Virus record (IMG/VR): IMGVR_UViG_3300016744_000001
From: a virus
Lineage: Duplodnaviria; Caudoviricetes
Strand: one strand, 5' to 3'
DNA: 64,000 nt
Positions 361 through 59,499 of this stretch are shown one piece after another. A model generated the notes under the pieces. That model ran no database searches. It worked only from the letters and a program-made list of their open reading frames with translations, and was not told the DNA's origin. The position numbers were made by a program, and so were the translations under genes. The first letter of the stretch is position 1, and every line of letters starts with the position of its first letter.

Positions 361-684
361 CCGGCAGGGGTACTTAAAGCCGTGTGAAATGTCATACCGC
401 TTAAATTGGGTATTTGTAGGTTTGATGGACCTCTCCTACTTAACCCTGCCGGTCCAAATTGAGAGTCATGGACCCCTTCCAATATCGACCTCCTTGCTGT
501 GCTGCGTCGCATTGGCTCCTATCCCCATCATGACTCTCATTCATTTCTCTTCCTGCTCGGTAGCCGAAGTTGCTCCCCCTACCAGCTGACTGAGGTCTTG
601 CAGGAAGAGAATAAACCTCAATGTTCACCGTCAACAACAGCGTGGTGTCTGATCAATCAACACTCATGTCGAGCACTGAGGTTT
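361..684 (+). ncRNA. putative multi-domain structured small RNA with C-rich (anti-SD-like) loops
   Basis: Four back-to-back closed stems (361-369/444-452, 460-470/529-539, 545-556/600-611, 613-620/677-684); inner stems contain G-U pairs valid only on + strand; no credible CDS. Confidence 0.65.
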
Positions 685-697
685 TCTTGTTTTATTC

Positions 698-730
698 TAG
701 TGGCACCAACCGTCGGGGTTGGTGCCACTA
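698..730 (+). terminator. 14-bp perfect hairpin, putative terminator
   Basis: tagtggcaccaacc-gtcgg-ggttggtgccacta. Confidence 0.6.
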
Positions 731-771
731 TGACGACAATTTTGAGCATGCATTTTTCTTTTGGAGGAACA

Positions 772-1317
772 ATGTTAATCTATACTGGAATTGGCAGTCA
801 AAAGACTCCACCAGACATGTGCATGCTAATGACTGACATCGCTAAGCAATTAGCAAAACGTTGGTTCTTACGCAGCGGCTATGCTGATGGTGCAGACAAG
901 GCATTTGGAAAAGGAGCTTATCAAGTTAATGCTCCCCAAGTACATTACCTTCCTTGGGCTGGGTTCAACCATGCACCAAAGGACAATCACATCTTTAAGC
1001 CTTTGGATAAATTGCCTAGCCACTTGGTGCTACAAGCAACTGAGATGGCGGCACAGCTGCACCCCAATTGGGCAGCCTGTGGACAAGGGGCAAGAAAGAT
1101 GCACACCAGAAATATGTTTCAGGTATTGGGAGATGATCTAAATACTCCCACCGACATGGTGGTGTGTTGGACTCCAAAAGGATCTGGTTCTGGTGGTACA
1201 GGGCAAGCAATGCGTTTAGCCAAAAAGTTAGATATTCCAGTCTTCGATTTGGCAATTGCTGGGACTCTGGAGGCAATGTTAATTTTCGTATCTGAAAAAG
1301 AAAACACAGAGGTGTAG
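772..1317 (+). CDS. SLOG/DprA-Smf-like Rossmann-fold phage protein
   Basis: SD GGAGG then ATG at 772; motifs YTGIGS, LRSGYADGADKAF, VVCWT...GGTGQAMRLA...IPVFDL. Confidence 0.8.
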   Translation: MLIYTGIGSQKTPPDMCMLMTDIAKQLAKRWFLRSGYADGADKAFGKGAYQVNAPQVHYLPWAGFNHAPKDNHIFKPLDKLPSHLVLQATEMAAQLHPNWAACGQGARKMHTRNMFQVLGDDLNTPTDMVVCWTPKGSGSGGTGQAMRLAKKLDIPVFDLAIAGTLEAMLIFVSEKENTEV

Positions 1318-1321
1318 AATT

Positions 1322-1651
1322 ATGAATCTACCCGGGATATTCGAACCACGAAAACGGCTTTTCGCCGCTCATTTTTGGTCACAACGATCACTTGGGCGTA
1401 ATATTCGGTCATGCTGGGTTGAGTCTGAAGTTAACAGAATACTGAATGAACAGTATTCTGGCCAGTTGTTTGACTTCCTATTTGATCCCAACAAGTACAC
1501 CAGTCGGATGATTATCAGCCACACTGAAATTAAGAAACAGAGAGTCTATTCATGGGGATACACCTGTGATGCGCTTTCACCAAAAAATGGCTATTTTAGT
1601 GAATGCGTGATGCTGGTGGTTGACCGACTAATGGAGAAGGTGTATGGATAA
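1322..1651 (+). CDS. hypothetical protein
   Basis: ORF with GAGGTG SD, in tight operon. Confidence 0.7.
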   Translation: MNLPGIFEPRKRLFAAHFWSQRSLGRNIRSCWVESEVNRILNEQYSGQLFDFLFDPNKYTSRMIISHTEIKKQRVYSWGYTCDALSPKNGYFSECVMLVVDRLMEKVYG

Positions 1652-1913
1652 GTGGACCAAACTGGATGTCATTGGTATGATCAACTGGGTGTTGCTGATT
1701 GTAGCGATATTGCTGCCGATTAAGTTGCCCCATCCGTATTGGGGGATGTTTGAAATGGTCGCATGGGCAATGCCGCTGTTGGTTAGTGGTACACCAGATT
1801 GGGTTTTCCCAGAATGGATAACCAAGTGCCTAGAAATATTGGCATGGATCGCTTATGGAATACTCATTGGTGGAAACCTTTATCTGATTAGTCTTTGCTG
1901 GAGGGTGATATGA
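1644..1913 (+). CDS. small membrane protein
   Basis: hydrophobic segments; overlaps neighbouring ORFs by a few nt. Confidence 0.7.
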   Translation: MDKWTKLDVIGMINWVLLIVAILLPIKLPHPYWGMFEMVAWAMPLLVSGTPDWVFPEWITKCLEILAWIAYGILIGGNLYLISLCWRVI

Positions 1914-2146
1914 AACTAGCAATTCTTAAAGGACTCCATCGAGGACTTCACACCAGAAGAGCCGAGACTCACAAAAATTGTGGTATTTTCCAGCAAAACA
2001 TACCGGGTTATCAAAAGCAAACAAAGCTGATGATACTACGTGCGTTTGCCAGGTCAAATCGAACTCAATCGGCGTTTGTCATCGCGCACAACAAAGAACT
2101 AAATTACTCAATGAAGGTGATGCATGGAGATACCAGAAATCAGTAA
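1910..2146 (+). CDS. small basic hypothetical protein
   Basis: GGAGGG SD; ATGA start-stop overlap at 1910. Confidence 0.6.
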   Translation: MKLAILKGLHRGLHTRRAETHKNCGIFQQNIPGYQKQTKLMILRAFARSNRTQSAFVIAHNKELNYSMKVMHGDTRNQ

Positions 2147-2504
2147 GATTGAGGATCTGGATATACAGATCAAGGCAATTATCACCAAGGCAATCCAAGA
2201 TCCAACCGTGATCCCCGCATACCTGCAGCTGCAGTTGGGAAAGCTGGCTAAGGCACAAGAAGGGTTGTCAGCGATGCTGCTGACTGTGGAAGATGGTTGT
2301 GAAGCGAATACCCGTAAACAGCTGGTGAACACCATGCGATCGGTGGTCCATCAAAACCGGATCATCCAGCATGTGATCAACGTGATCTTGGTCTATATTG
2401 CTAGCGGTGATTATGACAACGCCGCTCACGGTGCAGCACTGCGTGCTGGGGCTGATGCCAGAACAGTCCTGAAGGATGTTTGGAACAAGAAGTTCAAAGA
2501 GTAA
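2124..2504 (+). CDS. hypothetical helical protein
   Basis: GAAGGTG SD; 126-aa ORF. Confidence 0.7.
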   Translation: MEIPEISKIEDLDIQIKAIITKAIQDPTVIPAYLQLQLGKLAKAQEGLSAMLLTVEDGCEANTRKQLVNTMRSVVHQNRIIQHVINVILVYIASGDYDNAAHGAALRAGADARTVLKDVWNKKFKE

Positions 2505-2535
2505 GTTCTGACACCGTGGAGTATTTTGTGTATAA

Positions 2536-2612
2536 GCTAGCGTAGCTCAATTGGCAGAGCAGCTGATTTGTAATCAGCAGGTTTGTGGGTTCAAGTCCCA
2601 TCGTTAGCTCCA
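2536..2612 (+). tRNA. trnT: tRNA-Thr(TGT)
   Basis: acceptor GCTAGCG/CGTTAGC, anticodon arm gctga-tt TGT aa-tcagc, GTTCAAGT T-loop, encoded CCA. Confidence 0.95.
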
Positions 2613-2622
2613 GTGTAAATAA

Positions 2623-2697
2623 TGGGGCTTCGTCAAGCGGTAAGACAACAGACTTTGACTCTGTCATTCACTGGTTCAAATCCAGTAGTCCCAGCCA
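2623..2697 (+). tRNA. trnQ: tRNA-Gln(TTG)
   Basis: acceptor TGGGGCT/AGTCCCA, anticodon arm acaga-ct TTG ac-tctgt, GTTCAAAT, encoded CCA. Confidence 0.95.
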
Positions 2698-2714
2698 AAT
2701 ATTCGAGAGGTAAC

Positions 2715-2966
2715 ATGAACCGCAGCGAGATCTTTGAACGTGTGAAGTTGTGTGTGTCGAAGCACACTGAGGTCGAAGCTGACCTGATCACTGAGCAGTC
2801 AATGTTGGCCGAGGAGTTGAACTTTGATTCGATTGCCTTGATTGAACTGGGCATGGAAATCGAAGAACAGTTTCAGGACATTAAAAAGCTGGATATTCCT
2901 GAAGGGGATATCATCGGCTGGTTTGATGTTGAAGAAATCGTGACTTATCTCGAGCAAGTCCTGTAA
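2715..2966 (+). CDS. acyl carrier protein (AcpP-like)
   Basis: 83 aa, acidic; phosphopantetheine-site motif LNFDSIALIELGMEIEEQF; SD GAGG, ATG at 2715. Confidence 0.85.
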   Translation: MNRSEIFERVKLCVSKHTEVEADLITEQSMLAEELNFDSIALIELGMEIEEQFQDIKKLDIPEGDIIGWFDVEEIVTYLEQVL

Positions 2967-2968
2967 GC

Positions 2969-3002
2969 TACTCATCCCACACCAACTGGTGTGGGATGAG
3001 TA
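2969..3002. terminator. perfect palindromic hairpin
   Basis: tactcatcccacacca-ac-tggtgtgggatgagta. Confidence 0.6.
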
Positions 3003-3055
3003 TATTTTGTACAAAGTTTTTTCTTTGTATCTAATCAAGAATTTACGAGGTCATT

Positions 3056-4816
3056 ATGAAGTTATCTGTCAAGTTGACAGGCTTGTCAACAACACTGACT
3101 CTGTTTACAATTATCGTTGGGGTACTAGCGATACTTGGAATGTCAAACATTAACCGTGAAACACAAGACTTGGCGAAGAACTGGTTACCATCAGTCAAGT
3201 CAGTCAGTGAGCTGTCAGATGCGGTTAACGAGTTCAGACGAGATCAGTTGGCTAAGATCATTGTCAACATCAACAACAACAATGAGTTAGTTGTTGAGTA
3301 CAACCAGAAGACTGACAATGACTCAGCTCGTGTACAACGGCGAATGGATCGTTATGCGAAGTTGATCAGTGAACCTGAAGAACGAGTGGCGTTTGAGGAT
3401 TTCAAGATCGCTTGGCAAAAGTACATGGTTATCAATCAACGAATTGAAGTCCTGCTGTTACAAAACAAACCACAGGAAGCTGGCACACTGTTGTTTGGGG
3501 ATGCTCGGGTGATCTACAATACGGCACTATCAAATCTGCTTAAAGCGATCTCAATCAATGACCAAGGGTCAAGTCAATCAGCTGCTAAGGCGAGTGACGA
3601 GTACTCTCGTAGCCGATTGATCACATTGATCTTGACAGTAGTGTCCACGCTGATCGCGATCATGTTTTCAGTATTGTTGATCAGAGTAGTTCTCAAACAG
3701 TTGGGGGAAGACCCGGGGTATCTGTACGAAGTCTCCATGGAGATTGCGAATGGAAACCTTGATGTCAAGTTGAAGTCATTTGTGGGTGAGGGTGGTGTAT
3801 ACGGTGCACTCACGAAGATGGTCGCAACTTTGAAAGCTAAGATCAAAGAAGCTGAAGAGAAGTCAGCTCAGGCTGCACAAGAAGCGCAGTTTGCGAAAGA
3901 AGCCACTGCGGTTGCTGAAGAAGCAACTCAGAAAGCTCAACGTGCCAGAGCTGAAGGCATGATGCAAGCGGCAAAACAGCTGGAAGAAGTTGTGACTATT
4001 TTGACAACAGCGTCTGAAGAACTGTCAGCGCAAGTGGAACAATCTCGTCGAGGAGCAGATGATCAGTCTGGTCGGGTACGAGAAACAGCAACTGCAATGG
4101 AAGAGATGAACGCAACTATCTTGGAAGTAGCAGGGAATGCTCAACATGCAGCTGAAGCGTCCACACAGACCAGACAGCAGGCAATTGAGGGTACCACCAT
4201 TGTTGCTGATGTTGTCAAGAGCATTGAGTCCGTCAGAGTCCAGTCAGCTGGGATCAAGTCAGATATGGACATGCTTGGTAAACAAGCACTGGCAATTGGT
4301 CAGATTCTTAATGTGATTGCCGACATTGCCGACCAGACGAACCTGCTTGCTTTGAATGCCGCCATTGAAGCTGCCCGTGCAGGTGATGCTGGTAGAGGGT
4401 TTGCAGTGGTCGCTGATGAGGTTCGTAAACTTGCTGAAAAATCAATGACTGCTACTCAAGAAGTTGGGAAAGCAATCAATGACATTCAGGAAGGAACTAA
4501 AAAGAATATTGCTGGGGTTGAGAGCAACACTGTTGCAATTGAACAGGTAGCTTTGTTGTCAACTCAGTCTGGTGAAGCATTGACCAAAATCCTTGAGTTT
4601 GTTAACCATGTGAACGATCAAGTGCAATCAATTGCCACTGCTTCAGAAGAACAGTCAGCGGCAAGCGAAGAGATCAATCGTTCTGTGGAAGAAGTGGCAA
4701 CAATTTCCAACGAGACATCAGTTGCTATGGAACATGCCTCAGGTTCAGTTGCTAAACTGTTGCAACAAGTTCAAGTACTTCAGAAGCTCATCACTGAATT
4801 GAAATCAGCTAAATAA
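3056..4816 (+). CDS. methyl-accepting chemotaxis protein (2 TM helices, four-helix-bundle sensor, signalling domain)
   Basis: signature [36 protein letters not shown]; NWLPSV periplasmic 4HB start; methylation helices ATAMEEM and [12 protein letters not shown]. Confidence 0.95.
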
Positions 4817-4820
4817 TTCA

Positions 4821-4854
4821 TCAGTACTACACCCTGAAGAGGGTGTAGTACTGA
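4821..4854. terminator. 15-bp perfect hairpin
   Basis: tcagtactacaccct-gaag-agggtgtagtactga. Confidence 0.6.
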
Positions 4855-4875
4855 GAATCGTAAAGATTTAAGGAA

Positions 4876-4883
4876 TATATTAC
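4876..4883 (+). promoter_or_regulatory. putative early promoter TATATTAC
   Basis: exact match to the phiKZ early promoter consensus; follows a terminator and precedes an operon. Confidence 0.6.
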
Positions 4884-4943
4884 TTAACAGATCGTGACAA
4901 CTTTTATGTTAACAATCAAACCAAAACTAAACGAGGGAATCAC

Positions 4944-6974
4944 ATGGATTTCAAATTGATCAAGGATGCTGTTGCAGCGCAGTTTGCCAAGATGGTCAAG
5001 GAAGATGGCAACCTGTTTGTGGTCGACGTCGAACGTGACACCATCTGGGAAAGCTATCTTGGCAGTTTTCCTGAAGGGACCAACCCGATCTACCGCGTCC
5101 GCCGGGAGTACGATTGCTCCATCTGCCGTCAGTTCGTGCGCGTGCTCGGCGGGGTGGTTTCGATCAATCCCCAAACTTTGAAGGTTTCTTCCATTTGGGA
5201 CATCACCGTATCCGAACCGGCATTCCAGGCGGTGGCGGATGCCATGTCCAACCTGATCCACTCCAAGCCGATCGTTAATGCGTTCCGTCATTCGGAACAT
5301 CGCATTGGTGCCGACTTCACCATGGCCTTGTTTGAAGACAAAACCACCCCGGTCAAATTTGACCACTTCTTTGCAAACCTGCCAGGGTTTGCGTTTGTCC
5401 ATGACAAAGACTACGGAACGGTTCTGTCGCAGTACCGCTCCGGCTACGACGTGTTCAAACGCGGTTGTGTCGAACTGACGTCGGAAGCGTTCGACACGGT
5501 TCTTGAGCTGATCGCTCAGAACTCGCTCTATCGCGGTGAAGAATTCACCGGCGTAATCAACGCCTTCTACAACCTGAAGAAAAAACATGACGCGCTTCCG
5601 GAAGACCAGCGGGAAGCTTTCCTGTGGCTTTCAGCCGTCACCCAGCCGGCCAGTGTGCTGCGTTTCCGCAGCATGGCAATTGGCCAGCTCATCATCGACC
5701 TGTCGGACGATGTTGAACTCGAAGCTGCTGTCAGCTCTTACGAGCGCATCACCGCTCCCACCAACTATCGCCGCCCGACTTCTCTGGTCAGCAAAGCAAT
5801 GGTTGAACGGGCCAAACAGACCATTACTGAACTCGGTCTGGAATCTGCTCTTGCCCGCCGCTGTGCGACCATCGATGACATCCCTGTCGTCGATGCAATC
5901 TTTGTGGACCGTAACCAGGTCACCAAACTGGAAGACGATCCCTTTGACGTTCCAACCACGGGCAATAAGAAGCAGGACTTCAAACAGGTGCAGGAAATCA
6001 CCATCGACAAGTTCATTACCGAAGTGGTGCCCACCGCCACCAAGCTTGAAGTGCTTCTGGAAAACAAACTGACCAAGAATTTGGTCACGATGACCACTGC
6101 GGTTGACCCGACCGCACCCGGCATGTTCAAGTGGAACAATCCCCTTGCTTGGGCCTACGTTGGTGACGTCACCGACTCGATCAAAGAACGCGTGAAAAAC
6201 GCTGGTGGCAACATCACGGCGGATCTCTGCTGCCGCCTGTCCTGGGACAACACGGATGACCTTGATCTGCACATGATCGAACCTTCCGGGTTCGAAGTGT
6301 ATTTCCGTGAGAAGATGTCCCCCAGTGGCATGCAACTTGACGTTGACATGAACGCCGGCCACCAGCCGTTGAGCACTGAACCGGTGGAAAACATCTTCAT
6401 GCATTCTGAGCACGGTCTCAGCCAGAACGGTGTTTACCGCCTGTTTGTGCACAACTTCAACCGCCGTAACGGTGACTCCCGTGGTTTCACTGTGGAAATT
6501 GATTTCAAGGGCAGCGTCAAGACTTTCTGCTGCGACAAGGTGATTCCCACACATCACGCCGTCGAAGTGGCCAAGTTCAAGTACGTTCCCGGCGAAGGGA
6601 TCGTGATCATCGAATCTCTGCCTGAAAGCAATGCCAGCAAAGAAGTGTGGGGGCTGACCACGAACAACTTTGTTCCGGTGAAAGCCCTGGTCAAGTCTCC
6701 CAACCATTGGGGTGACAACAACATCGGCAACCAGCATTACTTCTTCATGCTGGATGATTGCATCAATCCCAACAGTGTTCGTGGTTTCTACAACGAATTC
6801 CTGCGGGAAGATCTCACTCAGCACCGCAAGGTGTTTGAACTGGTTGGCACCAAAGCTAAGGCCGAATCCACGCCCAACCAGCTGTCCGGTGTCGGTTTCT
6901 CGACCACACAGCCGGCACAGCTTCTTGTTCGGGTCACGGGTACCTTCACCCGTGTGCTTCGTGTAACCTTCTAA
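4944..6974 (+). CDS. conserved large phage protein (676 aa) with CxxC and a C-terminal DLDLH (YfaP-like) beta domain
   Basis: SD GAGGG; YDCSICRQF; LSWDNTDDLDLHMIEP...LDVDMNAG...PVENI. Confidence 0.75.
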   Translation: MDFKLIKDAVAAQFAKMVKEDGNLFVVDVERDTIWESYLGSFPEGTNPIYRVRREYDCSICRQFVRVLGGVVSINPQTLKVSSIWDITVSEPAFQAVADAMSNLIHSKPIVNAFRHSEHRIGADFTMALFEDKTTPVKFDHFFANLPGFAFVHDKDYGTVLSQYRSGYDVFKRGCVELTSEAFDTVLELIAQNSLYRGEEFTGVINAFYNLKKKHDALPEDQREAFLWLSAVTQPASVLRFRSMAIGQLIIDLSDDVELEAAVSSYERITAPTNYRRPTSLVSKAMVERAKQTITELGLESALARRCATIDDIPVVDAIFVDRNQVTKLEDDPFDVPTTGNKKQDFKQVQEITIDKFITEVVPTATKLEVLLENKLTKNLVTMTTAVDPTAPGMFKWNNPLAWAYVGDVTDSIKERVKNAGGNITADLCCRLSWDNTDDLDLHMIEPSGFEVYFREKMSPSGMQLDVDMNAGHQPLSTEPVENIFMHSEHGLSQNGVYRLFVHNFNRRNGDSRGFTVEIDFKGSVKTFCCDKVIPTHHAVEVAKFKYVPGEGIVIIESLPESNASKEVWGLTTNNFVPVKALVKSPNHWGDNNIGNQHYFFMLDDCINPNSVRGFYNEFLREDLTQHRKVFELVGTKAKAESTPNQLSGVGFSTTQPAQLLVRVTGTFTRVLRVTF

Positions 6975-9703: not shown

Positions 9704-9793
9704 GGAGCGATGGCAGAGTGGTTTATCGCGGCGGTCTTGAAAACCGTTGATGGCTAATCCCATCCGGGGGTTCAAATCCCTCTCGCTCCGCCA
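9704..9793 (+). tRNA. trnS: tRNA-Ser(TGA)
   Basis: acceptor GGAGCGA/TCGCTCC, anticodon gcggt-ct TGA aa-accgt, long variable arm, encoded CCA. Confidence 0.95.
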
Positions 9794-10184: not shown

Positions 10185-10586
10185 ATGTCAACAGTTAGAG
10201 ATTACATTGATCGGTTGAACTGTGATGTGAATGGGAATGATCATTACCCACTGTACACGTTACAGAGTTTCTTCAAGATTGCTACTGGGTATAACCGAGT
10301 GGTGATTGGTGATCGGGGACCGTATGTTGAGATCCTGACACACCAGTTGATTGATGACTGCTTTGAAATGCCAATGGGAGAGACTTGGCGGTTAGGATCA
10401 AGGAATGCGTTCTATCTTGAATATCGCACCGTCAGGGATTATGTTAAGATTTACCACCAGCTCAAACCAGTTGACTATGCTGATTATATTCCTTACCGGT
10501 ACTACGTCTCACCATTTGAACTGTGTGATATGTTTGGTACGGCATTGATTACGAAGCTTCCCCGAAGAAGAAAAAATAATTCTTAA
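10185..10586 (+). CDS. hypothetical protein (IATGYNRVVIGDRGPYVE family)
   Basis: SD GGAGGAG, ATG at 10185. Confidence 0.75.
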   Translation: MSTVRDYIDRLNCDVNGNDHYPLYTLQSFFKIATGYNRVVIGDRGPYVEILTHQLIDDCFEMPMGETWRLGSRNAFYLEYRTVRDYVKIYHQLKPVDYADYIPYRYYVSPFELCDMFGTALITKLPRRRKNNS

Positions 10587-10603
10587 TCGATGTGATCAAT
10601 AGA

Positions 10604-10896
10604 TGTGAGAGGATACTCTCCAGCTCTCACACCTTCAGTGATCAGACCAAGCAGGGTATGTCTGGAATCGTGCTCTAGCTCTGGAAGATCATCTGACCCG
10701 GATTGGAAAAGATTGCCAGTTACTAAGGTTATTGCTGCTCCAAATTGCGCCGACAACAATTTGTTGAGCACACCTGGTTCGGTGATTGATTTCAGTCCAC
10801 TCTAGGAACAGACAACCTGCCCGTTTGTTCCTTTGGTTCCTGCCTTCTACCTGCCCTCCCCCGTGGTACCCCACTCCCTTGTTAGGGAGTGGGGTA
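10604..10896 (+). ncRNA. putative structured RNA (multi-hairpin, pyrimidine-rich tail) ending at a terminator hairpin
   Basis: stems 10604-11/10624-31, 10643-47/10660-64, 10736-47/10757-70, 10804-13/10823-32; three CCTGCC motifs; terminator 10867-10896. Confidence 0.55.
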
Positions 10897-10930
10897 TTGT
10901 CCATGGTGTATTTGTTTTTTATTTTAAGGA

Positions 10931-10938
10931 TATATCAT
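10931..10938 (+). promoter_or_regulatory. putative early promoter TATATCAT
   Basis: same TTTAAGGA context as the 4876 site. Confidence 0.5.
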
Positions 10939-10991
10939 TAGTATAGTCAGTGGCAGTTATAACAACAACCTTCATGATATCTGGAGTATTC

Positions 10992-16287: not shown

Positions 16288-16869
16288 ATGCTTGTACACA
16301 ACTTCCCACCCCATCCAAACTTGCACGAACCTTTGGTGCGGCAACTGTTGGATACTATTGTGGCTGGTATGACGGGCAAAAATGTTCGTCACGAGATTGT
16401 GACCTTTGCTCTGGGCTGTGCTCAAATTAATTTGAGCACAGCCCAGATCATTCCGTATTTCCTGTATTTTCTGTTCTATCAGGATCAGATCATGGGTCAG
16501 TGGAACAACACTCAGGCAGATTTTTTAACTGCACCACAAAAACATCATGAGTCGGATGATGTGGTTAGAAGTCAGTTGATTCGGCAGTTTACAAGGTTGC
16601 CGTATCAGCCACTCAATTATCAGTATCCCGATAATCAGCGGCATTCATTTTGGATTATTGTCACAGGTTTCACTGGTATTCAGGTACACATCACGGCGGC
16701 TAGAAACGTCGAAGATTTTGTTATTGTGGAGGATTATCAGAATGACAAGATCGTCTACAAAAACTTGATTTGTAAAATTCGGTCACTGAAACAATTGTTT
16801 CTTGGGACACTGGTGGAGGTCTTTGCCTATGTCCTAAAACTGATGGATCGCCCAGAAGAGGAGGAGTAG
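16288..16869 (+). CDS. paralogue family A, copy 3
   Basis: EPLVRQLLDTIV...EIVTFALGCAQI. Confidence 0.75.
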   Translation: MLVHNFPPHPNLHEPLVRQLLDTIVAGMTGKNVRHEIVTFALGCAQINLSTAQIIPYFLYFLFYQDQIMGQWNNTQADFLTAPQKHHESDDVVRSQLIRQFTRLPYQPLNYQYPDNQRHSFWIIVTGFTGIQVHITAARNVEDFVIVEDYQNDKIVYKNLICKIRSLKQLFLGTLVEVFAYVLKLMDRPEEEE

Positions 16870-21577: not shown

Positions 21578-21585
21578 TATATCAC
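21578..21585 (+). promoter_or_regulatory. putative early promoter TATATCAC
   Basis: matches the recurring motif; lies in a divergent intergenic region. Confidence 0.5.
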
Positions 21586-21657
21586 TATAGTGAAAGTAAT
21601 CCTTGGAACTTTAGCTGTCATTTGATGGTCATACCCGTTTAACTTTTGGAGAAAATC

Positions 21658-40126: not shown

Positions 40127-40150
40127 GTGTAAATCAATTCAAGTTACAGC

Positions 40151-40158
40151 TATATAAC
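40151..40158 (+). promoter_or_regulatory. putative early promoter TATATAAC
   Basis: motif variant after a terminator and before a standalone gene with strong SD. Confidence 0.5.
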
Positions 40159-40211
40159 AACTGTGAAGAAGCAATCCCTGCTCTTCTAAACAAACTCCGA
40201 AGGAGTCTATC

Positions 40212-40631
40212 ATGACCATGCTTACCGCTGAAAATTTCGACACCGTCATCAAGTCCCTGGAATCCAGCACCGACGTCATCCCCAGCTGGAGCTTCCCCAT
40301 GGTTCTGGTCAACATGAAGCCGGAGCTGATGGAGTACACCTGTCAGCTGTACCTGGGAAACCCTGGTGACAGTGGCTACATCAACACCCCCGTTGACGCC
40401 AAGCTGGTCTACGTGGCATATTGCCAGGGTGTGGCCCTTGTGTTCTTCATGCACAAGGGCCACAACAACATGGTTCAGTTCAGTATGGTGCGCACCGGAG
40501 CGGACCACGTCAATGGTAAGATACGCACCACTGGTGGTGCACTCTTCACCACCAGTCTCCTCAACAATCTTCCTAAGAGCTTCGGCAGCTTTGCCGAGCT
40601 TTGCGACAAGTATGAGGCTCTGTTGAGTTAA
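40212..40631 (+). CDS. hypothetical (probably early) protein
   Basis: SD AAGGAG; 139 aa. Confidence 0.75.
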   Translation: MTMLTAENFDTVIKSLESSTDVIPSWSFPMVLVNMKPELMEYTCQLYLGNPGDSGYINTPVDAKLVYVAYCQGVALVFFMHKGHNNMVQFSMVRTGADHVNGKIRTTGGALFTTSLLNNLPKSFGSFAELCDKYEALLS

Positions 40632-40638
40632 CCTTAAC

Positions 40639-40672
40639 CTAGTGAGAGGCAGCAGTTGCTGCCTCTCACTAG
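40639..40672. terminator. perfect palindromic hairpin
   Basis: ctagtgagaggcagca-gt-tgctgcctctcactag. Confidence 0.65.
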
Positions 40673-40700
40673 ACATACTAACGGTAAAGTTTTTTTTGTG

Positions 40701-40732
40701 GTAGACCAGACCACCGAAGTGGCCTGGCCTAC
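40701..40732 (-). terminator. minus-strand hairpin with UUCG tetraloop
   Basis: gtaggccaggccac-ttcg-gtggtctggtctac, with two G-U pairs on - strand. Confidence 0.65.
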
Positions 40733-40751
40733 TGACAGCTTAAACCCACAT

Positions 40752-40814
40752 GGAGGCAATCACATCTCTCAAGGATGTAATCATGACGAGGTGCAGCTCA
40801 TCATTCTGCCATCC
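40752..40814 (-). ncRNA. putative three-way-junction RNA in a 3' trailer
   Basis: P1 gga(t)ggca/tgcctcc, P2 atgatgag/ctcgtcat, P3 attacatc/gatgtgat; G-U pairs valid only on - strand. Confidence 0.45.
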
Positions 40815-40826: not shown

Positions 40827-41432
40827 CTAATAACAATCAATTTCTTTCAAGATGACAAAAGATTGTCGAAGTAAATACACCAGATCAATTGAGAGCTGGC
40901 CAATCAAACAACGACAGTGATTGCTAATCGCCGATGGAATTTGTGGGTATTCATTGGTCAGTGCAGTCACGTATTCCTGAATGAGATCACCATGGTTTTG
41001 ATGCCGGTGATAATGTACATCCAAGACATGTTTCACTGATTTATACCCAAGAGAAGCCAATTGGTATTTTTGGCCTCCATCTTTGATTCTAAACGCATTT
41101 CGGTATGCACCGATGTCAATACTAAACTTACGTGTCTTTCGTCCGTCTAGGAGGTAAAGACAGCGATTTTTGATGCTCTCTGAGATTGTCGTGAACATCT
41201 CACAGTACTCTGGTGCACTCCAAGCAGGAACAAGACAGTCAGCAAGAATGTTATTTGAATAACAGTCAAGTTGATCATCCAGTTTCTTAAACTTGAGAGT
41301 CAACCAAGAGCAGAGTCGATTGTACTCCTGACTTTGTGAGTTGAGGGTCAATCCGAGCTGGTCAATTGACAGCTTGTTCGGATTAATGGCATTCAACATC
41401 ACCCCAGCAAGATGACTTTCTCGGTTTGTCAT
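40827..41432 (-). CDS. hypothetical protein
   Basis: 201 aa; SD GAGG. Confidence 0.7.
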   Translation of the reverse strand: MTNRESHLAGVMLNAINPNKLSIDQLGLTLNSQSQEYNRLCSWLTLKFKKLDDQLDCYSNNILADCLVPAWSAPEYCEMFTTISESIKNRCLYLLDGRKTRKFSIDIGAYRNAFRIKDGGQKYQLASLGYKSVKHVLDVHYHRHQNHGDLIQEYVTALTNEYPQIPSAISNHCRCLIGQLSIDLVYLLRQSFVILKEIDCY

Positions 41433-44368: not shown

Positions 44369-44629
44369 ATGTCACAACTGAACGTAACAATCCCGACTGT
44401 TCAGTCAGCCACATCCCAGCAGCTGACCCCGTTTCAAAGAGAAGTTCAAATGAACAAAACGGTTCAGGAATACCGTGGCGTCTTTGCCATGTTGCTGGTT
44501 CATGGCGTGCTGATGGACACCGTTGAAGACGCTGGGGATGAATCCTCAACCGAAGGCAAGGCTGAAGTGGCGAACATGATCGCTGACAAAATTGGTGTTC
44601 AGGCAGCGATGCCTGCGCAAACGAGGTAA
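44369..44629 (+). CDS. small hypothetical protein
   Basis: SD AAGGTGG; 86 aa. Confidence 0.65.
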   Translation: MSQLNVTIPTVQSATSQQLTPFQREVQMNKTVQEYRGVFAMLLVHGVLMDTVEDAGDESSTEGKAEVANMIADKIGVQAAMPAQTR

Positions 44630-52589: not shown

Positions 52590-52591
52590 CG

Positions 52592-53575: not shown

Positions 53576-53576
53576 T

Positions 53577-54644
53577 ATGTCAATGGTTGCTGAAAACTCA
53601 ACACCGAAAGGCATGTCGCGGCGAGTAAGATTGAATGCCATGGACTGGATGATCCGGAACTATGCACATCCTTACAACCGAAAGATCAACAATTTCTTGT
53701 GCCGCTTTTCCCACCTGATTCGGCACATCAAACCTGAGGAAGTCGACCTCGAACTTGCTTGGGGTCATGGCTTATTGAACGGTGAGCTGCAGGATGTGCC
53801 ATTTGACAGTACATCTGGACTCATTCAAAACTACCTGGTGGAACATCGGTCCGACATTCGTCGCCAAGTGTACACCACACTTGCAGACTGGTTGATGGTG
53901 ATGACAAAGATCTTCGATCGTACTCAGTTCAAAGCTGACGACGATTATACGGACAGCTGTGCTTGGGACAGCCGTTATGACATGATTGACCTGGGTTACA
54001 CCATCAAGCTGCCTAAGGCCACCAGAGAAATCCTTGATGATCTGGTGAAGTTCATCCAGACCACGTCGTTTGAACGTGACTGGGAATGGCAGCAATTGGA
54101 GTACAAGCTTGACATGGCAATGACCTCAGTGAAGGATGCCAACAAGCGGTATGAGAAGGTCCTCAACGATATCATCTACGATGATACTTTGGATGACCAT
54201 CCTCAAGTGACTGGTCAAACTCGACTTGTCTCTGATTATGCTGTGCCACTGTTGTCAGTGATTCCGCAGAATCAGTTTGACCACAGTCTGTCGGTCCCCA
54301 GTGAAGTGGTGATGAACTCCTTGACACCAAGAAAACTGAAAATCTACTCAAGCATTTTTGGTCTCTTGGCATGCTTGCGCTTGGTGCGCATGGAAGGTGA
54401 GTTTGCCAAGTTTCTGCCATCTTGGATGGTGACGGGTGACCCAAGAGACAAAGATCCTTTTGCAGAACACGGGAATGATGTTTTGCTGGAACAATGGCTT
54501 GACCATTTGCCAACGTATCATCCTTCATTCGTTCTCTTGCTGAAAGAACGGAAAAACTTCACGTACACTGGTTCTCACCGGGACCCGTACAGTGACTGTT
54601 CCGTTGCATTGGCCTATCTCAGAGCGATGTTTCCATTCATCTAG
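53577..54644 (+). CDS. hypothetical virion-associated protein
   Basis: 355 aa; ATG immediately after the upstream stop. Confidence 0.65.
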   Translation: MSMVAENSTPKGMSRRVRLNAMDWMIRNYAHPYNRKINNFLCRFSHLIRHIKPEEVDLELAWGHGLLNGELQDVPFDSTSGLIQNYLVEHRSDIRRQVYTTLADWLMVMTKIFDRTQFKADDDYTDSCAWDSRYDMIDLGYTIKLPKATREILDDLVKFIQTTSFERDWEWQQLEYKLDMAMTSVKDANKRYEKVLNDIIYDDTLDDHPQVTGQTRLVSDYAVPLLSVIPQNQFDHSLSVPSEVVMNSLTPRKLKIYSSIFGLLACLRLVRMEGEFAKFLPSWMVTGDPRDKDPFAEHGNDVLLEQWLDHLPTYHPSFVLLLKERKNFTYTGSHRDPYSDCSVALAYLRAMFPFI

Positions 54645-54746
54645 CTCTTCAAATAGGAATGGTAGTTATCAATGTATGTGTCTGTCGACAAACACTTAAC
54701 TCACTGATCTATAGATCTCAGTGACCCTTTCGAAAGGATTACCATC

Positions 54747-55874
54747 ATGGCCAATCTGAAAAACTCGCGCAGTGCTTTTGAGCGTCTTCAGCATCGTTAC
54801 GAAGGCGATGACGGCGAAGGCACAACCATTGAAGTGACCATCATCGCCGACGCTGACGCTGAAGCCGTTGAAGCGGCTCTTGACGAAGAAGAAGCGTCTG
54901 CTGACATCGCTGATGGCGAAGCCACTGCTGATGACGACGCCGCTGGCGAAGAAGAAGCCGCTGAACTGAGCGCCATGGCCGAAGTGCTGCGCGCCGAAGG
55001 TCTTACCCCCGGCATGTACGCCCTGCTGCAGGCCTCAGGCAAATGCGCTCTGTACAACATTGCCATGCCCGGCAAAGAAACCATGGATGTCGCTGGTCGC
55101 AACGACGCCATGGCCACTGCCATCGCCAGTGCTTTTGAAGCCACTGCCGCCGGTTTCTGGGAAGGCACCAAGAACTTCTTTGCCAAGATCTGGGATGCCA
55201 TCATCCGCGCGTTCATCTGGATCAAGACACACGTCGGTGGCGTGGAAACACGCGTGAAGCGTGCCCACGACTCCCTCAGCGGCAAATCCTTTGACGCTGA
55301 AAAGGGCAAAGACGTGAAGGCGAAAGACCTCAGCGAAGAAAAGTTGAAGGGCCTCGCCAGCGCTGCCAGTACTGTGCTGGAAAAAATGCGTTCGGTCTCC
55401 AGCTCCATGCGTGAGGGCTGGTCAGTGTCTGATGCCATGCCGGCCAATGACGCTCTCCAGCGTGCCACCGGTTACAAGCTTGCCGAAGGCGGCAAGGGTC
55501 TTGAAGAAGCCGACGAAAAGTTCATGGAAGGCGAAGAAATCGCCGTGACTGACGCCGTCTTCAAAGCATACCAGGGCAGCCGCTTCACCGCCATTCAGGC
55601 GATCATCACGATGATCAAGAAGGCCGATGCTTACAAGACTGACGCAGAAGCTTGCAAGAAAGCCTTTATCTCGTTCACCGAGAACAACAACAAAAACAAG
55701 GGCGAAAACGGCAAGATGAGCGAAGAAGCCAAGAAGAGCATCAAGACGGCCAAAGAAGCCAGCTCCGCTTGGATGAAGATCGTTGGCCGTCAGGTCAAGG
55801 TTCTCGCCCGCGCCTGCTCCATGTACGTCAACGGCTGCGGCAAAGCTCGTGCTTGCGCCAAGTCCGCCGACTAG
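54747..55874 (+). CDS. abundant internal head/ejection protein with acidic propeptide
   Basis: acidic N-terminus, SAFE site, then GFWEGTKNFFAKIWDAII amphipathic helix; strongly biased codons. Confidence 0.75.
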   Translation: MANLKNSRSAFERLQHRYEGDDGEGTTIEVTIIADADAEAVEAALDEEEASADIADGEATADDDAAGEEEAAELSAMAEVLRAEGLTPGMYALLQASGKCALYNIAMPGKETMDVAGRNDAMATAIASAFEATAAGFWEGTKNFFAKIWDAIIRAFIWIKTHVGGVETRVKRAHDSLSGKSFDAEKGKDVKAKDLSEEKLKGLASAASTVLEKMRSVSSSMREGWSVSDAMPANDALQRATGYKLAEGGKGLEEADEKFMEGEEIAVTDAVFKAYQGSRFTAIQAIITMIKKADAYKTDAEACKKAFISFTENNNKNKGENGKMSEEAKKSIKTAKEASSAWMKIVGRQVKVLARACSMYVNGCGKARACAKSAD

Positions 55875-55884
55875 GAGGTTCACC

Positions 55885-55911
55885 ATGAAAGGCTGGCCTC
55901 TGCTCGGATAA
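55885..55911 (+). CDS. putative micropeptide MKGWPLLG
   Basis: GGAGG SD 6 nt upstream; homologous to the ORF at 59355. Confidence 0.4.
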   Translation: MKGWPLLG

Positions 55912-55937
55912 CTTGACCTAGTTAAGTCGGTTCATTT

Positions 55938-55972
55938 GTCTACCCTCTACCCGTTTTGGGTAGAGGGTAGAC
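55938..55972 (+). terminator. 15-bp hairpin plus U-tract
   Basis: gtctaccctctaccc-gtttt-gggtagagggtagac-ttttt. Confidence 0.75.
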
Positions 55973-56038
55973 TTTTTAGTTCTAACATTGCTTTAGCCTA
56001 TGAATACCAAACATTCCACATGGAGCAATTAAAGAATC

Positions 56039-57043
56039 ATGGACACATTAATTGACTCACAAGAATTTGTACTCTTTGATCAACAAACTCGTGAACAACT
56101 GGGTCAGTTGTACACGGTTGCAAATGAGTCAGCTTCAGAACTAATCGAAGGCATGGAAGAAGCTGATCAAATGATCCGTTATCCTGCGCTGGCCAAAGAA
56201 GGACTGATTGGCGAAGCGTACAACTTTGTGATGCTCTGTCTGCGATCTCTCTTGAACCTGGTAGAGAAAGTCATCGCTTGGTTCTCGGAAAAGATCAACC
56301 ACTTTGTGAACATCCGCCAGAAGGTCAAGAAGCACAATGACGGTCGGGTGGATAAGTTTCGGTCATTGTACACTGGGTTTACTGTGACCGAAAAAGCAGA
56401 AGCAAACACAAAGTTCAAGTCTTTGCACATTGACTATTGCCCCCCTCACCAACAGTATATCCAGATGTGCAATCTTTTCAATCAGGTCACCAACTACCTA
56501 GCAAGCAACGTTACCAGTTACGTAAGCCGTGATGTGGCGTTGTTTTGGTCGAACGTTGACCCTGAAGTGATCCCAGCTTGGTGTGACGCTGAACTGATGG
56601 AAGTCCTTGCCAAGTTTGGTATCAAGATGGATGTGGATAACTTCAGTTATACCTCACCATTTACTGCCATGCCCCGGATGACCATGGATGAAGGTGGTTA
56701 CAACATCGAGTCCATCGCAGACATCAACTACCATTACGCCAAGTTTGTGTATGGTAATCTGCGAATCATCATCGGGTTGAAGAAACAGTTTGAAGAGTTT
56801 GAGAATGTGATCAAGCTCAAGGAAAAAGAAGCCGCGAAGCTGGCAGGAGAAGGTAGCAAAGCTTCTTTTGCTGCGGCTACCAAGAAGATCAGCAAGTCAA
56901 TTGCGGTGAGTATTCGCTTAACCAATTATCTGACCCAAATTGAGGAAGCACTGGACACACGTCGTGGCTGGATCAGCATGCGTGGTGTTGAGGCGTGTGT
57001 CAAAACCGTTAACAAAGATGCTGCTGCTGTTGAGTTTCAGTAG
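56039..57043 (+). CDS. internal head protein paralogue
   Basis: acidic N-terminus, A-x-E (ALAKE) followed by an amphipathic helix. Confidence 0.65.
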   Translation: MDTLIDSQEFVLFDQQTREQLGQLYTVANESASELIEGMEEADQMIRYPALAKEGLIGEAYNFVMLCLRSLLNLVEKVIAWFSEKINHFVNIRQKVKKHNDGRVDKFRSLYTGFTVTEKAEANTKFKSLHIDYCPPHQQYIQMCNLFNQVTNYLASNVTSYVSRDVALFWSNVDPEVIPAWCDAELMEVLAKFGIKMDVDNFSYTSPFTAMPRMTMDEGGYNIESIADINYHYAKFVYGNLRIIIGLKKQFEEFENVIKLKEKEAAKLAGEGSKASFAAATKKISKSIAVSIRLTNYLTQIEEALDTRRGWISMRGVEACVKTVNKDAAAVEFQ

Positions 57044-57056
57044 CGAAGGAACTATC

Positions 57057-58649
57057 ATGGCGCGTAAAGGATCAGCAGTAGAACAGTTCTTTTTTCAGGC
57101 GAACAGTGCTCTTGGGAAAGGAATGGAACAGGCATTCCAAGCAGCAATCAATTTTGTTGCAGGGATCGATTACAGCAACATCGCCGATAAAGACAAGGTT
57201 GGTTATCGGCGTACACAGACGCACAACTATGCCAGGATGACTCTGTTCCCAGCATTGCAGAAAGTCATCCGTGACACCACCAATCTTGAAATTGATAAGG
57301 TGGTTGATGTCAATCGCTTTTGCGGGTACTTCGCCATTGACATCGGACTGGATGCCTACGAAGAGGTCATCGCTATTCTTCAGAACCAGAGTGGCACTGG
57401 TGTAAAGCCAACTCCTCTGGACGAAACCGCAAAAGAAATCGCTGACTTTGCTGAAAAGGTTGATCAGGTCAATGCGAAACTGACTGCAACCTTGTTTGGT
57501 AAAGGGCTAAGCCGGAAGATTTCAGCGACGTTGTTCATGGATGTTGACATGGCCCTTTTGATGCAGGACAACTTGCCAGTTGACTATGTTGACTCGTTTA
57601 CAGCATCTGAGCTGACTGGCATCTACCTGCATGAAGTCGGTCACATGCTGACAATGCTGTATCAAGCAGCCAACAGCTACGCTGAGGTTGAAACGATTCG
57701 TGGGCATCTGAAGTCGTTCCAATCAGTTGCCGGTGACCCCAAGAAGTTTGTCGAAGTATACACCAAGGCAGTGCGACCAATGCTGGCTGATGGTGTGACC
57801 AAGAAAACCGTCAACCCAGAGATCTTGGACAAGTCCGATAAGCTGATAGAATCTGTCAAGTACTATGAGCAAGCCAAGACCGATGATTGGGGTTGGGGAA
57901 CAGCTGAGCTCGTCTGGCAACTATTCTCAAAGTACATGATGATCTACTGCATGATCTGGTCCAGAATCATCATGATGAACTTTATCCTGCCGTTCTATTG
58001 GATTGCCACTTGGTTCATTGGCAATCCAGGTGACAAAGGAAAAGTATCTGATGTTGGTAATTCGCCCAGAGCCTTTTATCGTGTTGAACGAATGGCCGAC
58101 GATTTTGCGGCCAAGCAAGGCTACGGTGGACAGCTGGCACAAGGACTGAGTAAGCTGCTTAAAGCAATTGAAGCAGCTGAGACGATGACCTTTGCTGGCA
58201 ATAAAGTGCACACCTACACCTTGCGCAAAAGTAAAGTGTTCATGTACACCCTCAAGTTCATTGTGGGATATCGTGCGGCACTCCGAATCAACGGTGAAAA
58301 GATCACTCGTGACTTCATGGGACATTCGAACTATGAAGCTGACACTGACAGGTTGCTCCGTGTGATCCAACAAATCACCGCCGCCTTCAAGAATGACCTG
58401 CCGCGTGAATTGTCCAACCATTACCTTGGTGAGTTGGCAGCAGCAAAAGCAGCTCTTGAAGACACCAAGTCTAAGACAAGAGCTATCTCTGACTTTATCT
58501 GGAAGTACTTTCTGGATACCGAGCAAGTACTTGGTCGTCTTCTTCAGACTGACCAACCAAAAGAAATTGAGCAGATGCTCAATGAACTGGACACAGTCAT
58601 CAACAATGAACTGTATGTCCGGGCTGCAGAATTCAAACACATGCGTTAG
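57057..58649 (+). CDS. virion protein with M48-like metallopeptidase motif
   Basis: ELTGIYLHEVGH ... ERMADDFAAKQGYG; hydrophobic central helices. Confidence 0.7.
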   Translation: MARKGSAVEQFFFQANSALGKGMEQAFQAAINFVAGIDYSNIADKDKVGYRRTQTHNYARMTLFPALQKVIRDTTNLEIDKVVDVNRFCGYFAIDIGLDAYEEVIAILQNQSGTGVKPTPLDETAKEIADFAEKVDQVNAKLTATLFGKGLSRKISATLFMDVDMALLMQDNLPVDYVDSFTASELTGIYLHEVGHMLTMLYQAANSYAEVETIRGHLKSFQSVAGDPKKFVEVYTKAVRPMLADGVTKKTVNPEILDKSDKLIESVKYYEQAKTDDWGWGTAELVWQLFSKYMMIYCMIWSRIIMMNFILPFYWIATWFIGNPGDKGKVSDVGNSPRAFYRVERMADDFAAKQGYGGQLAQGLSKLLKAIEAAETMTFAGNKVHTYTLRKSKVFMYTLKFIVGYRAALRINGEKITRDFMGHSNYEADTDRLLRVIQQITAAFKNDLPRELSNHYLGELAAAKAALEDTKSKTRAISDFIWKYFLDTEQVLGRLLQTDQPKEIEQMLNELDTVINNELYVRAAEFKHMR

Positions 58650-58652
58650 CAG

Positions 58653-58684
58653 GATAGACCAGAGGGGAAACCCTCTGGTCTATC
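58653..58684. terminator. 14-bp perfect hairpin with GAAA loop
   Basis: gatagaccagaggg-gaaa-ccctctggtctatc. Confidence 0.65.
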
Positions 58685-58710
58685 AGTGTGAATTGAAGAA
58701 AAAATAAGTG

Positions 58711-58718
58711 CATATTAC
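58711..58718 (+). promoter_or_regulatory. putative early promoter CATATTAC
   Basis: motif variant after an A-tract, upstream of the 58767 gene. Confidence 0.45.
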
Positions 58719-58766
58719 TAAACTGTACGAGGGTATAAAAATAAAAACAAAGGAGAATCCTTTACT

Positions 58767-59300
58767 ATGAAAAGAGCAAACGTTTCAGTGTTGGATGTCG
58801 TCAAAATACTCAAAACCATTCCCGTCGGCAACATCATGTCTTACGCCGACTTCACCAAGAAGACTGGGCTCAACCCTCAGTCCCAAGAAGGTTACTACGT
58901 CCTGCATCAGGCATACTCACTGATGCTGAGCGACCACAAGCAGATGTACGCTGCAGTGCGTGGCCGTGGCATCAAACATCTGACCAAGGCAGAGATGTTC
59001 ACAAAGGCACAGAACATCGTTGGCCAGGTGAAAGCCAAGGCTGAAAAGATGACCGATGTCTTGGATGCCGTAGAGATCACCGACTTGCCGACCAGCTATC
59101 ATCAGCGTTATCGCGCTGCAGTGGCAATCAGCAAGATGCTCACCCAGTGCGCAGCTGATGAAACCACTGCCGAGATCAACAAGATGATCGCCAATGGTAA
59201 TCCCATCCCGGGTTTCTATGAGATCGTCAGGACCATCCACAACTACTCGGTCAAGAAAGAAAACGACCGCCGCAACAATCGCCTCGACGCCACGCATTAA
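58767..59300 (+). CDS. hypothetical (possibly DNA-binding) early protein
   Basis: SD AAGGAG; basic; 177 aa. Confidence 0.75.
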   Translation: MKRANVSVLDVVKILKTIPVGNIMSYADFTKKTGLNPQSQEGYYVLHQAYSLMLSDHKQMYAAVRGRGIKHLTKAEMFTKAQNIVGQVKAKAEKMTDVLDAVEITDLPTSYHQRYRAAVAISKMLTQCAADETTAEINKMIANGNPIPGFYEIVRTIHNYSVKKENDRRNNRLDATH

Positions 59301-59304
59301 GAAA

Positions 59305-59499
59305 CATATTTTCGGTTAAGGTCCCGGTTATTAATCTGAGATAAAGGTTGAAATATGAAGAACGGCTGGGTCATCGTTCTACTGCCGCTTCTCGTATAGA
59401 TCATTACTGATCTGCGGCACTAGATTTTATAGCGATAAAAGCTATAAGATCCCCAAGTTCGGATAATGAGGGAGAGCAGCCTTGTGGTTGCCCTCCCTC
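59305..59499 (+). ncRNA. multi-hairpin 3'-trailer RNA containing a micro-ORF, ending in a terminator
   Basis: stems catattt/aaatatg, agaacg/cgttct, tgccgc..agatca/tgatctgcggca, gattttatagc/gctataagatc; terminator 59468-59499. Confidence 0.5.
59355..59399 (+). CDS. putative hydrophobic micropeptide MKNGWVIVLLPLLV
   Basis: AAAGG SD; homologous to the ORF at 55885. Confidence 0.4.
   Translation: MKNGWVIVLLPLLV

Follow-up and report, generated by a model that had tools for sequence, protein, structure and literature searches.

Predicted structured RNA elements in the 3' trailers of genes in a phiKZ-like jumbo phage

Non-coding RNAs of phages are poorly known, above all in the phiKZ-type jumbo phages. 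The stable RNAs encoded in the tRNA region of bacteriophage T4 (species 1 and 2, or C and D) are closed by stems, range from about the size of a tRNA to 150 nt, and are co-transcribed and cut out by host RNases. GOLLD and ROOL are elaborate structured phage RNAs that adjoin tRNA genes (Rfam; PMC5737381; cryo-EM PMC12286853), and bacterial type II small RNAs (sRNAs) derived from 3' untranslated regions (3' UTRs) lie between a stop codon and a terminator, have no promoter of their own and share the 3' hairpin of the mRNA (PMC9438474). The jumbo-phage sRNAs mapped so far are a handful, small and mostly 5'-UTR-derived (PMC11512511; PMC8244752). Here we describe five loci (loci 1 to 5) in a 64,000-nt stretch of phage DNA (IMG/VR record IMGVR_UViG_3300016744_000001; the window, by which we mean this whole stretch) at which additional sequence lies between a stop codon and the palindrome that ends the gene. 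Comparison with related sequences leads us to conclude that the phage, a phiKZ-like jumbo phage, has genuine RNA-level elements at loci 1, 2, 3 and 5. Loci 1 and 2, two large predicted multi-domain RNAs without known relatives, represent new elements; their structure is conserved across three lineages far beyond that of coding controls.

In common with the T4 stable RNAs, these two elements are phage-encoded, lie in a tRNA gene region and are closed by stems. They are unrelated to the T4 RNAs in sequence, however, the locus 1 domains come after a protein gene instead of tRNAs, and there is no conserved CCA-type end (the UCCA past the first domain of locus 1 is AUCA in the relative that we call lineage B). 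Like the type II sRNAs, they are found on the same strand as a protein gene, between its stop codon and its closing palindrome or terminator; a conserved single strand just upstream of the 3' hairpin is a further likeness, and its counterpart at locus 2 is CCCUCCCC. Type II sRNAs are usually 50-150 nt long with one or two hairpins, whereas loci 1 and 2, known here from sequence, extend over 260-330 nt and comprise four domains. The resemblance to GOLLD and ROOL lies in elaborate structure next to tRNA genes, but no threshold gives an Rfam match to loci 1 and 2, which are also smaller, by a factor of two to three, and consist of independent domains, each closed by a stem.

The sRNAs detected in phiKZ-type phages by ONT-cappable-seq, such as sRNA005 of 201phi2-1 and the phiKZ sRNA upstream of gp182, are likewise small structured RNAs of jumbo phages whose position relative to a homologous gene is kept (PMC11512511). 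Eight of those 11 are 5'-UTR-derived products of premature termination, three are intergenic and all are shorter than 250 nt (PMC11512511), whereas the elements described here are 3' trailers and unrelated in sequence. About 10,000 candidate structured RNAs (csRNAs) of viruses and phages share with them a conserved structure in uncultured phage contigs and the absence of an assigned function (PMC10690425); that survey used IMG/VR, and the copy of IMG/VR that we searched contains neither the present elements nor their relatives. Rfam 15 (including GOLLD, ROOL, tRNA, tmRNA, 6S, Y RNA-like, riboswitch and ribozyme models), applied at gathering and permissive thresholds, recovered only three tRNAs in the whole window; positions 340-780 gave no match at E<=5 and positions 10570-10960 gave only chance-level matches on the terminator. 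ARAGORN found only tRNA-Thr, tRNA-Gln and tRNA-Ser in the window, the tRNA model, even with its threshold made permissive, matched nothing in locus 1, and blastn against 50,697 phage records returned no match to the elements. These searches agree with a preliminary description of this DNA, in which the RNAs were not recognized as members of known phage ncRNA families.

Conserved structure at loci 1 and 2

A multisubunit RNA polymerase β-like protein (phrog_2986), virion proteins of phiKZ type and a phiKZ internal head protein indicate that the window derives from a phiKZ-type jumbo phage. The window is part of a 273,278-bp ENA metagenome contig, and the phage is uncultured and known from metagenomes only. 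Cultured phages, IMG/VR and JGI metagenomes yielded only distant relatives (37-50% protein identity, without synteny); usable relatives came solely from Logan, ENA and NCBI metagenome contigs, through exact-protein and 90%-cluster look-ups. Three lineages are compared here: the phage of the window, lineage A (SRR10842850, SRR10342238, SRR25904985 and GCA_034286695) and lineage B (ERR7015370), with an extra ENA contig (L021) that also spans locus 2. Identity at the third codon positions of neighboring genes, which is 52-87% (mostly 55-80%) for lineage A and 48-74% (mostly 50-65%) for lineage B, served as the neutral yardstick. Folding was scored, with the terminator excluded, as a z-score against dinucleotide shuffles, the background being 68 coding windows of 324 nt (mean z -1.89, standard deviation 1.19, minimum -4.74), and the structure conservation index (SCI) was adjusted for identity against 64 or 194 coding controls from the same lineages.

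The features of locus 1 (361-683, + strand) are as follows.

130-354, + strand: gene of 74 aa before locus 1; protein cluster with 5 members at at least 90% identity
361-452, + strand: domain 1, a 9-bp closing stem around two hairpins; z -4.29
460-539, + strand: domain 2, closed by an invariant 12-bp stem, with a variable interior and the invariant unpaired motif UAUCCCC; z -3.28
545-611, + strand: domain 3, nearly invariant, with a 12-bp closing stem and the loop CUCCCCCUACC; z -3.11
614-683, + strand: domain 4, closed by a 13-bp stem that shows compensatory changes, with the invariant unpaired motif CACCGUCAACAACA; z -2.42
698-730, + strand: 14-bp palindrome that closes locus 1, without a following U-run and not called a canonical terminator

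The four domains are each closed by a stem of 9-13 bp and separated by short A/U-rich linkers, of which UCCAAAUU and AUUCAUU are conserved single strands; the unpaired motif of domain 3 is invariant, as are those of domains 2 and 4. Locus 1 is the sole thermodynamically exceptional locus, with z-scores without its palindrome (361-684) of -5.65 on the plus strand, beyond 68 of 68 coding windows of equal length, and -4.64 on the minus strand. Its SCI is 0.82 at 71% identity, where 0.52 is predicted from 64 coding controls (residual z 4.4, with 0/64 as extreme). Domains 1 and 4 are individually significant by this index. Domain 1 (SCI 0.74 at 59% identity; 0/194 controls as extreme) has three compensatory pairs in its closing stem and an inner hairpin that is 29 nt shorter (lost or shortened) in lineage B, and domain 4 (SCI 0.90 on the plus and 0.74 on the minus strand at 71% identity; 1/194) has four doubly changed pairs. 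For domain 2 the SCI is 0.65 at 66% identity, with 4/194 controls as extreme, and domain 3 is 88% identical in lineages A and B alike. The preference of locus 1 for the plus strand is moderate, with alifold consensus energies of -119.8 versus -107.3 and SCI values of 0.82 versus 0.76. In the relatives, which share long invariant runs, the 74-aa gene stays equally far from the DprA-like gene that follows the locus (772-1317), at 417-418 nt in lineage A.

Locus 2 (10604-10862, + strand) has the following features.

10185-10586, + strand: gene of 133 aa before locus 2; 83-84% identical in relatives, with the gene called in contigs L019 and L021
10604-10631, 10635-10695, 10700-10798 and 10802-10835, + strand: hairpins of locus 2
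10836-10862, + strand: pyrimidine-rich single-stranded tail, ending in the invariant CCCUCCCC and 11 nt shorter in relatives
10865-10898, + strand: palindrome that closes locus 2

This locus is sharply strand-specific, with z-scores of -3.87 on the plus strand and +0.89 on the minus strand (10604-10860), alifold consensus energies of -109.4 versus -78.6, and an SCI at 70% identity of 0.88 versus 0.58, the plus-strand value having a z of 5.6 with 0/64 controls as extreme. The third hairpin carries a 12-nt insert in relatives. The indels of the two loci are of an RNA type: locus 1 differs by a whole 29-nt hairpin, and locus 2 by 12 nt inserted in a stem and by 11 nt of its tail. Past the closing palindrome lies a 50-nt AT-rich promoter-like block (10907-10956) that is 100% conserved.

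All four loci that we regard as RNA elements (1, 2, 3 and 5) are more conserved than neighboring synonymous sites. Short intergenic regions in general are mostly strongly conserved (83-98%), so conservation alone does not single out the five loci. The preliminary description had stated that G-U pairs favor the strand of the upstream gene, and we find the same: they make up 10-14% of the folds, the mirrored structure on the opposite strand loses 9-40 kcal/mol, and the alifold energies concur for loci 1, 2 and 5. Its companion statement that the terminators are mostly free of G-U pairs holds for three of six, the other three having two each.

Counts of compensatory pairs are not part of our case. 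Loci 1 and 2 show 12 doubly changed compensatory pairs (0/500 shuffles), but a coding control passed through the same pipeline also gives 12 pairs, with 91.7% paired and 0/500 shuffles, so these counts prove nothing, and the case rests on the identity-adjusted SCI, stability, strand asymmetry and RNA-type indels. The lesson is that, with three lineages, alifold counts of compensatory pairs have no value in the absence of matched coding controls. We also set aside z-scores from 150-nt sliding windows, which cut through domains and chiefly detect palindromes.

It is very improbable that these sequences represent no functional RNA at all, being instead DNA-level signals, remnants of decayed genes, degenerate tRNA genes, or chance folds of a pyrimidine-rich spacer, and for loci 1 and 2 this explanation is largely refuted. 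It draws on the nearly equal folding of the two strands of locus 1, on the position of both loci in tRNA regions whose cassettes come and go from one relative to another, and on a frame upstream of the DprA-like gene that is open for 60-116 codons in two lineages. That frame was rejected as coding: indels of 1 and 4 nt break it between lineages, and the DprA-like homologs begin at the annotated ATG. The SCI lies far above that of the controls, the G-U pairs that are tolerated would be C-A mismatches in the DNA or transcript of the other strand, and no tRNA signal is seen even at permissive thresholds. An open reading frame (ORF) of 66 aa in locus 1 and another of 66 aa in locus 2 were likewise rejected as genes, each having an odd composition and not being kept in relatives.

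Possible release from the transcript or a role in place

Loci 1, 2, 3 and 5 start 6-18 nt past a stop codon, too close to it for a promoter of their own, and end at a palindrome, so that each must be co-transcribed with the small gene upstream of it, as its trailer; no σ70 promoter is found on the plus strand in 355-771 or 10587-10949. We give a close to even chance, if anything slightly under, to the proposal that loci 1 and 2 leave this transcript in the form of stable domain RNAs and act in trans by way of their invariant C/U-rich single strands. Host or phage RNases would cut them from a polycistronic transcript, and the products would be nuclease-resistant non-coding RNAs that act away from their own gene, the C/U-rich segments either pairing with G-rich (Shine-Dalgarno-like) sequences or binding protein. 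Processing is suggested by the 9-13-bp closing stems, the conserved A/U-rich linkers, and the palindromes followed by the next ribosome-binding site. If the two loci are released as stable RNAs, the class of phage 'tRNA-island' RNAs (GOLLD, ROOL and the T4 stable RNAs) gains a new lineage and a new position, the 3' trailer, and the compact domains of 67-92 nt become targets for structure probing and pull-downs.

Several observations weigh against release and action in trans. The case is built on three lineages only, and the minus strand of locus 1 folds nearly as well as the plus strand. Locus 2 is thermodynamically ordinary, at about the 9th percentile of the coding background. Invariant unpaired C-rich motifs that might act as seeds are present, but several proposed anti-Shine-Dalgarno motifs are not conserved; among the candidates rejected because relatives do not conserve them are the exact 16S-like ACCUCCUU of locus 1 and a triple CCUGCC / GCAGG loop pairing in locus 2. 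The failure of the compensatory-pair counts as proof of structure counts on the same side. Phages of the phiKZ type inhibit the host degradosome, which would argue against processing by RNase E late in infection. Lastly, a purely cis-acting role fits the same anatomy.

The manner in which genes end in this window bears on that last point. The intergenic regions confirm that, within a few nt of its end, a gene here usually gives way to the next gene or to a long, perfect or nearly perfect palindrome, as the preliminary description held. The palindrome is often abutted directly by the next ribosome-binding site, which implies polycistronic read-through transcripts. Many of the palindromes have no U-run after them, and we therefore think that they are probably leaky terminators, or processing or stability hairpins of polycistronic RNAs. 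A G+C-rich hairpin with an immediate U-run, as expected of an intrinsic terminator, is present at 55938-55978; at 59468-59512 and 10865-10930 the U-run lies farther downstream, and the combination is lacking at 698-730 and 40693-40731. Behind gene-end palindromes, AT-rich blocks of the form (G)ATATAT(T/C)A(C)T.A. recur at 10907-10956 and at about 4872-4888, 58700-58720, 40150-40165 and 21580-21600; these are probably the phage's own early-type promoters.

A less probable explanation is that the structures act in cis only, as intercistronic or 3'-UTR elements that shield the upstream mRNA against 3' exonucleases, define where processing occurs or adjust read-through at the palindrome, with no free functional RNA being made. 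The order is always stop codon, structure, palindrome and next gene, as this would lead one to expect. The gap between palindrome and next start is only 41 nt at locus 1 (to the DprA-like gene) and 28 nt at locus 5 (to a 282-aa gene), and neither gap holds a promoter-like block, so that the downstream genes need read-through. The apparent leakiness of the palindromes without a U-run points the same way, as does the finding that in 201phi2-1 terminators (132) far exceed promoters (67) (PMC11512511). On the other hand, all other genes in the window make do with a single palindrome, and a conserved structure of several domains and 250-330 nt, its loops invariant, far exceeds what stabilization needs. 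By eye we find no antiterminator pairing to the 5' arm of either palindrome, and the conserved promoter-like block behind locus 2 makes control of read-through unnecessary there. Release as trans-acting RNAs is the reading we prefer for loci 1 and 2.

Both loci belong to the tRNA or stable-RNA neighborhoods of the phage. The island around locus 1 consists, in order, of a DNA ligase gene, a large conserved non-coding stretch, tRNA-Pro, tRNA-Leu, the 74-aa gene, locus 1, the DprA-like gene (which starts 41 nt past the palindrome), four small genes, tRNA-Thr and tRNA-Gln. Within the 74-aa gene, nucleotide identity is 0.90 and third-position identity 0.84. That protein has no Pfam or PHROG match and the 133-aa protein before locus 2 has no Pfam match, and the upstream proteins were accordingly rejected as recognizable RNA-binding proteins, being without Pfam or PHROG matches. 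Both tRNA-Ser and tRNA-Trp precede the 133-aa gene of locus 2 in lineage A (L019, L020), as does tRNA-Trp on the shorter ENA contig L021; the tRNA-Ser of the window lies 800 nt upstream.

We also note that the first ~1.07 kb past the ligase gene, upstream of the window, is 89% conserved, and that lineage A has no gene call there. The interval from the ligase gene to the 74-aa gene contains three extra segments (about 303, 212 and 211 nt) in the phage of the window that are absent from lineage A (L013 1-2229 compared with L010 3066-4472). The tRNA-Pro and tRNA-Leu genes upstream of locus 1 are common to the two, the tRNA-Leu being 100% identical. The tRNA cassettes near locus 2 have been shuffled: lineage A has tRNA-Ser and tRNA-Trp after an 86-aa gene (L019 5743-5908), and the window has only tRNA-Ser (9704-9793), before that gene.

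A broader and rather unlikely possibility is that a putative large upstream RNA, the locus 1 array, locus 2 and the smaller modules together form a toolkit of stable RNAs for host takeover or counter-defense. Such RNAs might be decoys for host RNA-binding or tRNA-targeting defense proteins, or anti-Shine-Dalgarno RNAs that reprogram translation. If so, this would be an RNA-based strategy so far undescribed for nucleus-forming phages, in which the RNAs are protein-free or protein-sequestering.

Smaller elements among virion genes

Loci 3, 4 and 5 lie among virion genes, and their features are as follows.

40733-40814, - strand: locus 3, an 82-nt module that is closed by a stem and holds three hairpins in a cloverleaf-like topology, directly past the stop codon of a 201-aa gene (40827-41432, - strand)
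40693-40731, - strand: hairpin after locus 3 with two G-U pairs on the minus strand only, followed by A8 and not by a U-run
55885-55911, + strand: micro-ORF of locus 4, MKGWPLLG, with a strong Shine-Dalgarno site (GGAGG); not conserved
59313-59455, + strand: locus 5, five hairpins, ultraconserved, after a 177-aa gene (58767-59300)
59355-59399, + strand: ORF of 14 codons in locus 5, MKNGWVIVLLPLLV
59468-59499, + strand: palindrome that closes locus 5; the next gene starts 28 nt on, at 59528

We find no sequence shared among the five loci, or between them and the rest of the window, as had been claimed; the loci are unrelated elements and not copies of one family. With no common sequence or architecture, and with two settings (tRNA neighborhoods for loci 1 and 2, virion genes for loci 3 to 5), there is nothing to join them into the single system that had been proposed. 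They are among the few places in the window with extra sequence before a palindrome; at locus 4 this sequence is unstructured (z about 0). Conservation of structure among relatives is strong at loci 1 and 2 and moderate at locus 3, whereas locus 4 is not conserved and locus 5 is too invariant to be informative. The preliminary description is thus partly confirmed as to its observations and partly supported as to its interpretation.

Structural support for locus 3, which we take to be a small 3'-end module, is moderate. The module has an SCI of 0.94 on the minus strand at 78% identity (2/194 controls as extreme), and its substitutions include a GC > GU > AU series and other compensatory changes. 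The stability of the single sequence is ordinary (z -1.37 for the 82-nt module); as first delimited (40752-40814) the locus had z-scores of -1.41 (+) and -3.18 (-), and while the strand assigned at that time stands, the conserved module is 40733-40814. Its cloverleaf topology is not that of a tRNA, the arms being of 8, 8 and 4 bp. The longest ORF beyond it, of 180 aa on the minus strand (40134-40676), is probably spurious, as relatives call instead a plus-strand ORF of 139/140 aa at 40212-40631, where third positions are more variable. With that gene as its neighbor, locus 3 therefore sits between convergent genes. As a separate observation, the hairpin region 40684-40731 is fully (heavily) compensated in lineage B, and the conserved A8 after it is, on the plus strand, a U8 before it, so that it is no canonical terminator in either direction.

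Locus 5 is a sequence-constrained element that may additionally encode a 14-aa peptide. It is 91.6% identical in both lineages, against 54-79% at neighboring third codon positions, and has z-scores of -2.07 (+) and -2.85 (-) over 59305-59465, with single hairpins reaching -3.30 and -7.16. All of its substitutions fall in loops or preserve a G-U pair on the plus strand, for which the alifold consensus is moderately better (-42.0 versus -33.5). Since its helices never vary (at 92% identity), the SCI is uninformative on structure here.

Conservation of locus 5 may be due in part to the ORF of 14 codons, which is intact in three lineages with two synonymous substitutions as its sole changes; third positions and the non-coding flanks are equally frozen. 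It has to be asked, then, whether locus 5 (and locus 4, in this phage only) is primarily a small-protein gene, with MKNGWVIVLLPLLV as a hydrophobic peptide and the hairpins as regulators. This appears unlikely to us. The ORF is the most conserved portion of the locus (96-98%), its two substitutions are at third positions, an AAGG lies 7 nt upstream, and locus 4 has a similar MKGW... ORF with a strong GGAGG, all of which would suit a peptide gene. However, conservation of the third positions is far above neutral, with about 5-6 changes expected in lineage B and one seen, and the flanks are 86-93% identical, which indicates constraint at the nucleotide level. In addition, the two sites that vary are within a predicted hairpin loop, the AAGG is paired within a conserved stem, and the ORF of locus 4 is deleted in lineage B. 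For locus 5 we accordingly favor an RNA element under sequence constraint as the more probable description.

Locus 4 is neither a structured nor a conserved element (31% identity). It folds no better than shuffles (z +0.16 on the plus and +0.56 on the minus strand; 55885-55935), and a segment of 38 nt that includes the micro-ORF (55875-55912) is missing in lineage B (L022 4055-4090), which shares only a small hairpin and the canonical terminator. Leader-peptide attenuation was also considered for loci 4 and 5 and rejected: the ORF of locus 4 is absent in lineage B, and by eye there is no alternative pairing with an arm of the terminator. Phages of the phiKZ type separate transcription from translation, and the coupling needed for attenuation would thereby be ruled out. 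We note in addition that lineage B has a further gene of 356 aa (L022 4174-5244) between the internal-head-protein gene and a 334-aa gene, at the site of the window's locus 4 terminator and promoter region.

Other features of the window

Three further observations concern parts of the window away from the five loci. A gene of 86 aa with a good ribosome-binding site (44369-44629, + strand) is an outlier in conservation, being 97% identical in nucleotide sequence to lineage A, wobble positions included, which is far above its neighbors; it has no special folding (z -1.6, -2.9). The strongest fold other than a terminator in the first 18 kb is at 16301-16550 (+ strand), inside gene 16288-16869, with z-scores of -5.9 to -6.7 in three overlapping windows of 150 nt. 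At 3056-4816 (+ strand) the phage encodes a full-length protein of the methyl-accepting chemotaxis type (PF00015).

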